Shown one piece after another: positions 1 to 56,563 of a DNA stretch of 64,000 nt. Source of the DNA: Octopus vulgaris (lineage: Eukaryota); contig OX597816.1 in assembly GCA_951406725.2 (NCBI GenBank), positions 44,082,001-44,146,000 of the forward strand, given 5' to 3'. Position numbers and translations under genes: made by a program. The number at the start of each line of letters is the position of its first letter. Position 1 is the stretch's first letter. A model generated the notes under the pieces. It saw only the letters and a list, made by a program, of their open reading frames with translations. It searched no databases and was not told where the DNA came from.

Positions 1-2164
1 TCAGAGGTCACCTTAAGGTAAATAATGCAGTATTCGTTCTTCAAAATATCCACGTAAAATTGGATACAAAGATTATATATTTAGCACTCTTTTTGTACTT
101 TCTATTTGTCTCTACTTTTCGCATAGCAGTATTTTCTGTTATATTTTTTAAATAATACTTTGACTTTGTTCAGGTTTATATATATTGTTAATATTATTGA
201 TGTTTAGTTAGATGCAAAAGTATGCTTTGCGGTTCCATTTCATCTTTGTTATGTTCCTACTCTAACATTATAGATGCTCGTATTCTTTTTATTTAGTGGC
301 CTTCTTCTAAAAGTAAAACTCCACAGGGACACTCTTATGCAGAAAGCTCTTTACTAGTTTCGAACAGCATTAATGCAGCGAATTATTTGGATCAGTGGCA
401 TGATTCAATTGCGTTGATCTATTGCCAATTTTTGTATTGAAGTCACAGGAGACATTGCCATCAATCAGGTAACAATTGTTAACAGATGTGATGGAGAGAA
501 GTGGTTATTTATATTGAATACTTCGGCCAGTATTTTGATTTTAGAAGACATTTCTTAGAAAAACAAGTATATCCCCTAATAGATGAGTGATGGGAATTCT
601 ACAGTGACAGATTATGGGTATTTTCAGTAAGTTATTTCATGAATTTTCCTTTGTTTTAATATTTTCGACATAAACCGTTTATGGGGGCAGCTGAGGTTAG
701 TTACAGTCAATGTTGGAACTACTATAGAACTGTATCTGCTACGCGATACAATATATGTCTTAGCTCGTCATCGACCATACGGTTAGATACAGACTCAAAG
801 TTAGGCCTTCTGCCTACATTAGAGTTACGCCTTCTTATATTATAATTCTTTATATTTATATCTCCTCTCTGCGTTATCAGCATAGATTCACAAGTAATTC
901 CAAGACTTTGCCTCAACTCTGATGTCAGTTATTCTTTTTATTACATTATGCCCATTACTTTTACCATTTATGAACATGCGTTGTTTGCTCAATGGTCTAA
1001 TGCATTCTTTCTCAACGTTGTACGTTAGATTCCTCTCTTATGAGGATCGGCTTACAGCAAGATGTAAATATATAATGTTTCTTGATTTGAAAAACAAATA
1101 ATCAACAGATTAAGCTTTGAGAAATAACAAATTAAAAGGAAACTGTATTTCGTTTCGATAGAACATAGCCCATTGGGGAAAAAAACTGTTTCGTCGTTAG
1201 CAATTTTTATGAAATGAAATTCAATTAAAATTCTATTTTTGTAGGTTTGCACAGTTGAAATTAACGACTGTTTGACCAGAGCAAAAATATTTAATTGCAC
1301 ACACATATATATATATATATATGTTCGCATACACTCACATACAAAGACACAAACAAACATATATTGTGAATCAAATAAAAGAAAATATCTTAATATAAAA
1401 ATTTAAAATATTTTGTATGCATGCAAATACCGTGCCTAATCAAATTTCCTTCCTTCAAATAGAAACCAATCTCAGGTGTATGTGGAAAGGAGACAAAAGC
1501 CTTCCGGTTCAGTAAAACACTTCTGTTTGAAATAGCAATAGCAAATATAGTTTGTGTGAGGTGTCGCATTATAATATCACAACCGCTAATGACAAAATTA
1601 ATTCTATGCAGAAAGTGGGTTATCTGTAACATAGGCATGGAAGAACTACTAATGGCTATGATCTATTTAAAGTATAATGTAAAATTTCTTGATACAATTT
1701 CAAATTGACAATCATTGTAATATGATATTTACTTGTGGTAGGACGGCTGCTGAAACAAGACGTTCAAGATGTTAATTTGAAAAATATAATTTTATTCAAG
1801 TGCATATATTATGTAACCAGATGAGGTTTTTTTCTGGACTGTAGGGTGCAATCAATTCCGTTATATCGTTCGCCATCCTCTAGAGAGAAGTGCAGATGTA
1901 AGCCGAAATGATCGTCGTGCCAAATAAAGCTTACACTACGCTCTGTCTTATCTATCAAATATTTAAAATATACTAAACGTGCACCGAGGAATTCCTTACG
2001 CAGATCCTACGAATAAAGTGCCGTACTGCTGGTAGCCGTATGCGGTAAATGTGCCAAGAGGTTTCACTCTCCGTGCTTTAGCTTCGTTACTATGGCAACA
2101 GTCCGGATGCCTATTGATTAGACCACGTCCAAATACGCCAGCTAAACTTGTTGTACTGTTTATT

Positions 2165-2461
2165 AGTCGTAAGACACCCACTGTTTTTTCCCTGTTTTTA
2201 CCATTATTGGTTTTTGTATTTTATATTTGTGTGGCATCGTCCGCTTTTCTGTCCCTGTTTCGTATACATTCGATCCTTCTTCCAAGAAATCTAATGCTCG
2301 TAGCTTAGTTTTTCCTTGGGGCTAGCCGGATCGGAGCGATCTCAAGATTAATCAGCCGAAATTGCTAGGATGATCCGGTTCTTGACTGAAGATTGAAGGC
2401 ATCCGTGTTTTTTGTATCGTCTTCTAAATGTTTTATGTTCTTGTCCCAGTTTGTATTTTTC

Positions 2462-2465
<4 letters not shown>
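2165..2465 (+). mobile_element. Non-coding (TA)n-anchored element (family P1) with structured hammerhead-like module
   Basis: Homologous to 56200-56536(-) and 21548-21690(-): CAGCCGAAATTGC...GACTGAAGATTGAAGGC. The 3' end abuts (TA)n at 2466-2508. Confidence 0.65.
2335..2400 (+). ncRNA. Candidate hammerhead with scrambled strand order
   Basis: AGCGAT-C-TCAAGA (2335-47), GAAA-TTGCT (2358-66), TCTTGA-CTGAAGA (2380-92). Pairings covary with the 56.3 kb copy. Confidence 0.45.
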
Positions 2466-2510
<45 letters not shown>

Positions 2511-21547: not shown

Positions 21548-21690
21548 TGCATAAAATACAAAATGGGACAAGAACGCAAAATATCCAGACAGACGATACA
21601 AGGAAAACAACGACGAATCATTCGGAGTTTCCTATCCTCAATCGAGTTCCAGATTACCTTTGCAATTTTGGCTGGTTATACTAAACATAC
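21548..21690 (-). mobile_element. 3' fragment of a family P1 subfamily
   Basis: Minus strand cagccaaaattgc..cgattgagga..ctccgaatg..gttcttgtccca, homologous to 2350-2465. Confidence 0.65.
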
Positions 21691-49036: not shown

Positions 49037-49245
49037 TAAAGTTAATTCAAACATGAAAACACAAAGAGAAAACACAACGACGCGAGGACGTGGAACAAAT
49101 ATAGTATTATTGGACGCTCAGGAAGGAAGGGAAGAAGGAGGGTTTAACGTCTCGAGCGGAGCTCTTCGTCAGAAACATAGGAAAAGGAAAAATCCAGAAA
49201 ATGGAAGACGGAGGAAAAAATCGCCAACGGTACACACGCGGTCAC
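49037..49245 (-). mobile_element. P3-related element with minimal hammerhead (49142-49176)
   Basis: Minus strand GTTT-CTGACGA-A-GAGC-tcc-GCTC-GAGA-CG-TT|AAAC, with one substitution in GAAA. Confidence 0.75.
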
Positions 49246-56160: not shown

Positions 56161-56199
<39 letters not shown>

Positions 56200-56531
56200 A
56201 GAATGAATGTTTTTATATATAATGAACGTGAAATACAGGAAGGGACGAACACGGAACACAGACAAATCATTCGAAGCCTTCAATCTTCAGTCAGACACCG
56301 AGTCATCATAGCAAATTTCGGCTGTTCAATTCTGATATTTGCTCCAACTCGGCCAGCCCCAAGAAAAAAACTAAGCTGTAAGCATTAGATTTCTTGGTAG
56401 AAGACAGGAATGTGAACGCACAAGACGGATGTGAATACAAGAGACGAAAACGAAATTGAAAACAGTAATGAATAAACAAAATATATAGAACGGTGGTTGT
56501 CATACGACTTTAGACCAAATGAGACAAAAAC

Positions 56532-56536
<5 letters not shown>
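56200..56536 (-). mobile_element. Family P1 element between (TA)n tracts, structured module at 56270-56390
   Basis: Minus strand AGCAAAT-A-TCAGA..CAGCC-GAAA-TTTGCT..TCTGA-CTGAAGA. Confidence 0.7.

Positions 56537-56563
<27 letters not shown>

Follow-up and report, generated by a model that had tools for sequence, protein, structure and literature searches.

A rearranged hammerhead core, open between A9 and G10.1 and likely self-cleaving, in the 3' part of probable non-autonomous Penelope-like elements of Octopus vulgaris

The window, a 64,000-nt stretch of the Octopus vulgaris genome (genome size 2.8 Gb), carries copies of three short repeat families, here designated A, B and C (Table 1). The family A copy contains a motif that an earlier note had described at 2291..2400 as a candidate hammerhead ribozyme whose strands are not in a circularly permuted order. 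The strands quoted there are present on the plus strand between 2336 and 2392, and those quoted for a second copy at 56.3 kb lie on the minus strand at 56342-56284, within the family B copy. They form three blocks, S (III'-UH-I), G (II'-GAAA-III) and C (I'-CUGANGA), in the order S-G-C, which bears out the claim of a hammerhead core in a non-circular strand order. A filter for stem I, stem III and the core in this order finds exactly two sites in the window. The family B copy passes the full filter, with predicted cleavage after A56336. A focused Rfam scan of the motif returned three matches at E<=10, all chance snoRNA similarities, and no hammerhead model. The Rfam scan of the whole window was swamped by (TA)n, which accounts for 150 of 222 among the matches listed.

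The window copy of family A is not a perfect representative. A private G>A at 2324 introduces one mismatch into stem II; among 26 distinct matches, an A at this position is seen only in the window copy (L001) and in L008. In addition, ~13 nt after 2400 are missing, and the 3' partner of the strands at 2267..2279 is partly deleted. Because of the stem II mismatch and the ~13-nt loss, this copy may be impaired. The covariation previously read from UAGC/GCUA against CAGC/GCUG rests on the same private substitution and is not retained.

Table 1. Features of the window that belong to the motif and its host repeats
Feature	Position	Strand	Remark
Family A repeat copy, 5'-truncated (unit positions 482-832 of the 832-nt non-coding unit), with (TA)n end	2128..2469	+	
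5' strands of an outer helix and of helix IV, predicted partners of the strand after A9	2267..2279	+	
Predicted hairpin V, ending immediately 5' of G10.1	2282..2319	+	minimum free-energy (MFE) fold of the intact copy L005
Stem II 5' strand; G10.1 = 2320	2320..2325	+	cross-family pairing
Helix P0 5' strand and kink-turn GA	2326..2335	+	P0 is the counterpart of the stem I-II interaction helix
Block S: III' 2336-2340 (U16.1 = 2340), C17 2341, stem I 2342-2347	2336..2347	+	predicted cut 3' of 2341
Block G: II', G12-A15.1, stem III	2352..2365	+	GAAA at 2358-2361
Kink-turn 3-nt bulge, GA, P0 3' strand	2366..2378	+	standard kink-turn consensus
I' 2380-2385 and core CUGAAGA 2386-2392	2380..2392	+	no stem II strand next
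Helix IV 3' strand, predicted	2395..2399	+	folding and permutation
Family C copy, truncated, core-mutated and decayed	21551..21682	-	
Family B copy, unit ~710 nt	56195..56537	-	intact motif 56358-56284

Eight repeat families were compared through their majority sequences, with 7 to 62 distinct copies per family. Six are homologous (A, B, C, D, E and G) and two (F and N) are unrelated. Positions C3-A9 (N7 apart), G12-A15.1, U16.1 and G10.1-C11.1 are invariant in all eight majorities, each of which has the A15.1-U16.1 and G10.1-C11.1 pairs of a hammerhead core. Position 7 varies between A, G and U, and H17 is C or A and never G; variability at position 7 and a C or A at H17 are also typical of hammerheads. 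Stems I and III differ between the families and remain paired. Stem I has 40/40 Watson-Crick pairs, a result matched by only 6 of 40,320 family permutations, and stem III has 39/40, matched by only 2 of 40,320, so the covariation claimed for these two stems is upheld. Stem III as originally drawn is indeed a covarying helix, except that its outermost A-U pair is better read as part of the kink-turn described below. In an alignment of 11 real copies, from which families D and N were left out (MAFFT placed them out of register), 91% of cells are paired and 14/25 pairs show two-sided changes, far above slid controls. Judged on sequence, the motif is real and conserved, and hammerhead-like by every test. 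Family F (L246-L270) is a second, unrelated octopus repeat family with 3,279 candidates and the same wiring.

Stem II is completed in an unusual way. The strand directly after A9 forms 7/30 Watson-Crick pairs with II' over six stem II types, and strands 1 and 5 nt later form 10/30 and 15/30. A strand lying immediately upstream of the outer helix (here termed P0) forms 28/30. Its first pair is G10.1-C11.1 throughout, and it ranks first among 720 permutations, a rank favoured by the choice of the upstream strand, which was picked by best pairing within a window. Its offset from U16.1 is 19-21 nt in seven families; in family F it was re-picked by hand at 25. The two strands change together between families and read GGCUG/CAGCC (A-C), GGCCG/CGGCC (E, intact copies), GGGCA/UGCCC (G), GAAGG/CCUUC (F) and GACAC/GUGUC (N); the family D majority has one A-G mismatch. 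In the real copies 92.6% of cells are paired and 3/6 pairs show two-sided changes (9/11 copies cover the helix). Single-family shuffle tests of stem II are weak (p 0.002-0.45). Further stem II variants were set aside, being mostly single mutated or truncated copies. With the upstream strand, all three core helices show covariation. Neither of the partners first proposed for II' (a strand after a 5-nt insert 3' of the core, or a small hairpin followed by GAAU) holds across families, and the place of both is taken by the strand at 2320-2325. Because stem II is completed from upstream, the backbone of the motif is, on this pairing, open between A9 and G10.1.

At the periphery of the core, helix P0 connects stems I and II at their distal ends, a role played by the interaction helix in SGC and CSG hammerheads; 81.5% of its cells are paired and 4/8 pairs show two-sided changes. 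In 7/8 families a bulge of 3 nt, with a GA on each strand, separates stem III from P0, the exception being family F, which has a non-standard bend. This joint fits the consensus of a standard kink-turn, in which a 3-nt bulge is followed by tandem G-A/A-G pairs, flanked by one canonical and one non-canonical stem. At the sequence level a standard kink-turn is predicted in 7/8 families, with near-constant arm lengths. The motif alone folds no better than shuffled sequences (z 0.5 to -0.9; pseudoknots were not scored). An intact 148-nt copy (L005) folds with z -2.3, leaving strands I and II' in a terminal loop. In this fold the strand after A9 pairs with the far 5' flank, forming helix IV and an outer helix, and hairpin V is placed just before G10.1. 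Constrained folds recover hairpin V only partly; helix IV is found in those of families A, B, D, E and G, and in C and F it is missing from the MFE structure. Helix IV ranks 828 of 40,320 in the permutation test, and support for it in the octopus genome is moderate. Two extra helices, IV and V, probably flank the gap between A9 and G10.1.

The motif lies within a 5'-truncated, high-copy, (TA)n-inserted non-coding retroelement. A first look at the genome gave 1,944 candidates for family A, 1,814 for B and 2,733 for C, and a pattern of the G and C blocks has 6,793 matches genome-wide, against 2 for the reversed control. The units of A and B are alignable only over the ~150-nt motif, at 82% identity. 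In the units of A, B and F the longest stop-free stretch is at most 154 aa, with no open reading frame for GIY-YIG plus reverse transcriptase. The elements of families A-G are short and lack coding capacity, and part of them are young, with copies up to 98-99% identical. At 29 of 30 family A loci, which were analysed, and at 30 family B loci, a common 3' end is found in 24/29 and 23/30, and TA at the 3' end in 25/29 and 23/30. The 5' starts vary among copies, indicating variable 5' truncation. Tandem copies occur at 12/29 A loci (8 of these from one array) and 11/30 B loci, and there is one case of an inverted piece among the loci of both families. This anatomy matches that described for Penelope-like elements (PLEs) in the part of PMC8557442 consulted. 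Assembled contigs from four presumed-RNA sequencing runs span the motif and show no position where transcripts pile up with a common start or stop, a result that carries no information on cleavage. One array (G000:C6:85539800-85545574) contains eight head-to-tail family A copies, mostly ~830 nt apart.

The order S,G,C is not among the circularly permuted orders of hammerhead types I, II and III. The suggestion that it is new stands only in so far as it is not a circular permutation of these types, since the same order was named type-SGC (HRIMA-1) in 2023, from metatranscriptomes only (Eckert et al. 2023, PMC10085705). In vitro cleavage of both SGC and CSG relatives is shown in that source, whose six-block scheme assumes a gap of at most 1-2 nt between CUGANGA and the stem II strand. 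Type-SGC and the octopus motif have in common the block order, a short linker between stem I and II', a full core, and a helix linking stems I and II at their distal ends. Unlike type-SGC, the motif has a split block C, in which the strand for stem II lies upstream of block S and pairing at offsets 0 and 1 is as low as given above; both strands of its interaction helix join stem III through the kink-turn; it has the predicted helices IV and V; and it resides in an animal genome. Type-CSG, represented in PMC10085705 by two metagenomic sequences, shares the cyclic order C-S-G, and the motif is related to it by circular permutation. The two differ in where the chain is open, which is between A9 and G10.1 in the motif and between stem III and I' in CSG. 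The hammerheads described for non-LTR retrozymes and minimal PLE hammerheads (PMC4209133; bioRxiv 10.64898/2026.07.22.740005, as far as consulted) are type I forms whose stem III is short and palindromic, whereas the motif has a non-circular order, a stable stem III, and the rest of the RNA in the 9/10.1 gap. On these comparisons of sequence the motif is neither type I-III nor strictly type-SGC. Searches of open-access literature found no split-core hammerhead interrupted between A9 and G10.1, although the supplementary alignments of PMC10085705 could hold similar cases, and no description of a permuted hammerhead in Naiad elements. The consulted parts of PMC13725137, PMC11300833 and PMC10162972 do not describe this wiring.

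Based on these observations, it seems likely (probability about 0.7) that the motif is the 3' part of a non-autonomous PLE with a complete, rearranged hammerhead core, and that intact copies self-cleave 3' of C2341, as an active split-core ribozyme. The predicted strand order is IV, hairpin V, stem II 5' strand, P0, III'-UH, I, linker, II'-GAAA-III, kink-turn, P0', I'-CUGANGA and IV'. The nested part would be one long hairpin (P0, kink-turn and stem III) with the predicted cleavage site in its terminal loop. This loop would dock, through the pseudoknot helices I and II, on the internal loop formed by the stem II strand and I'-CUGANGA, which would produce a normal hammerhead core. A9 and G10.1 would not be covalently adjacent, and helices IV and V would likely hold both together. 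As is established for hammerheads generally, G12 and G8 would catalyse cleavage after H17. Cutting of tandem transcripts would give unit-length RNAs, possibly circularised; the ends of a released unit would be kept paired by II, III, P0 and IV, which would favour circularisation. A PLE reverse transcriptase would then copy unit RNAs into (TA)n sites, including more-than-unit inserts by a route such as that proposed in PMC4209133.

How the loop reaches its partner is a closer question. The earlier note had suggested a pseudoknotted or dimeric fold, which is judged right, and had worried that the outer helix is sterically incompatible with a monomer; the conserved kink-turn answers this worry, while the reach of a monomer is still borderline by a crude estimate. 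Fold-back within one molecule through the kink-turn is favoured by a narrow margin. The same helices might instead be active only in trans or in tandem, with the terminal loop docking on the internal loop of the next unit; this variant shares the probability of the main reading and, taken by itself, is a tentative one. It is a close rival because the estimate, from assumed A-form values, makes monomer reach borderline for octopus and cnidarian cases and impossible for the crustacean EuTe if P0 stays paired. The frequent tandem copies at A and B loci point the same way, as does the joint between stem III and P0, which by eye varies across phyla (kink-turn, long bulges or a 1-nt bulge); metazoan PLE hammerheads are moreover described as acting as dimers (PMC4209133). 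The near-constant kink-turn arms in 7/8 families would be needless for free docking, however, and stem III is stable and not palindromic.

Other readings dispense with the split core or with cleavage. A hammerhead-derived structure that no longer cleaves, retained as a signal for binding or priming and used by reverse transcriptase or a kink-turn protein, would fit the genomic 3' ends, which lie ~140 nt beyond the predicted cut, and the gap in the core might inactivate it; this is unlikely, as every catalytic letter is fixed while the stems turn over, H17 is never G, and by eye the same combination extends across several phyla. Less probable still is a plain type-SGC ribozyme whose stem II strand follows a 5-nt insert 3' of CUGANGA, or a switch between this strand and the upstream one. 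The downstream strand (GGCU) does pair with II' in A, B and E, with 74.5% of cells paired, two-sided changes at 2/5 pairs and a permutation rank of 16 of 720, and because of this a switch in these three families may occur. This pairing does not hold in families C, D, G, F and N or, by eye, in coral, jellyfish and hydrozoan Naiads. In 7/8 families the upstream duplex is the stronger one (F having been scored with a mis-picked strand), and the downstream strand has a partner of its own in helix IV. The genome does contain many minimal type I PLE hammerheads, which would suit the ideas that the resemblance is due to chance or that an ordinary type I hammerhead cuts at the downstream GUC, the latter raised in the earlier note. 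This GUC has neither a stem I nor a stem III partner and is not conserved, being GAU or GAC in families B-G. The filter for both stems and the core finds no site in 30 shuffled windows, and the stem filter passes 0/105 pattern matches on viral contigs; chance is refuted by the covariation of family majorities and real copies, and the two ideas together deserve very little credence.

The motif is likely the ribozyme reported missing from Naiads. According to Craig et al. 2021 (PMC8557442), canonical hammerheads are absent from Naiads. The consulted parts of that source flag nine as 'HHR_core' and eight as 'HHR_half_core', the latter including Naiad_Ovul, and call cephalopod Naiads long inactive. 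For 53 Naiad consensus sequences from its supplement, the ~400 nt at the 3' end were read by eye. The rewired motif, with an upstream stem II that is complete or nearly so, is recognised in 9/53 (Obim, Ovul, Amil, Aacu, Anas, Movir-2, Chem-3, Plae and EuTe), whose hosts are octopus, corals, box jellyfish, a hydrozoan, an acanthocephalan and a crustacean, and probably in two more (Bfor and Esco). By the same reading, helix IV (5-8 bp) starts within 0-2 nt of A9, and hairpin V ends within 0-2 nt of G10.1, in the ends that include the flank (Amil, Anas, Movir-2, Chem-3 and Bfor). Six nematode Naiads (Nbra-1, -2 and -3, Hcon, Hpol and Asuum) instead show a type-CSG arrangement with block C intact, and these candidates also have a I-II helix by eye. 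In the other 36 ends, including 9 of the 17 flagged, neither form was recognised by eye.

Within the octopus genome, the Naiad motif (family N) has 236 matches against 0 for the control, and it matches the published Naiad_Ovul/Obim 3' end (PMC8557442). A remnant of a reverse transcriptase YxDD region lies upstream of the motif in L465, and another occurs in L455, there without a motif match; for the motif of this remnant nothing was found in the part of the PMC8557442 supplement consulted. Among 40 family N copies taken with ~4.5 kb upstream there is one reverse transcriptase open reading frame, from an unrelated neighbouring PLE, and no reverse transcriptase-coding element with a family A end was found. 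The link between families A-G and Naiads rests on wiring and anatomy, not on sequence. Like families A-G, Naiads are described in PMC8557442 with (TA)n targets, 5' truncation, partial tandems and an inverted copy; the same traits also occur in other PLE clades. Held a little less firmly than self-cleavage, yet still probable as a whole, is the joint reading that this is a seventh natural hammerhead wiring, its chain open inside the core and a two-helix side arm spanning the gap, that it serves many Naiads from ctenophores and cnidarians to octopus, that nematode Naiads carry the CSG permutation, and that such forms interconvert.

If the main reading is true, the CUGANGA-stem II block can be interrupted, against the published assumption, and non-circular permutations of an RNA reside in animal chromosomes in thousands of copies, beyond metatranscriptome contigs. 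The stated puzzle of Naiads without the hammerhead of other PLEs would also become testable. Under the joint Naiad reading, animal genomes would commonly contain non-circularly permuted ribozymes, and Naiads would preserve a record of how hammerhead permutations interconvert. Because standard descriptors and Rfam miss the rewired form, counts of invertebrate ribozymes may be too low.

Several minor observations concern other elements. A young, intact PLE (L291:1745-4087, L292, L293 and L303; copies ~99% identical) has a 781-aa open reading frame for reverse transcriptase with a C-terminal GIY-YIG domain, preceded by a second long open reading frame. At the DNA level its own ends are not similar to unit A or unit B, and it was rejected as their autonomous partner; it is a candidate trans-mobiliser. 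The 3' ends of oyster, hemichordate and two Clytia Naiads (PMC8557442 supplement) share, by eye, a GC-rich motif just after the stop codon, which has no hammerhead core and is possibly another structured RNA. Ordinary minimal type I PLE hammerhead-like motifs are present on the minus strand of the window near 49172 and in L342 near 4000, and canonical and rewired hammerhead forms appear to coexist in this genome.
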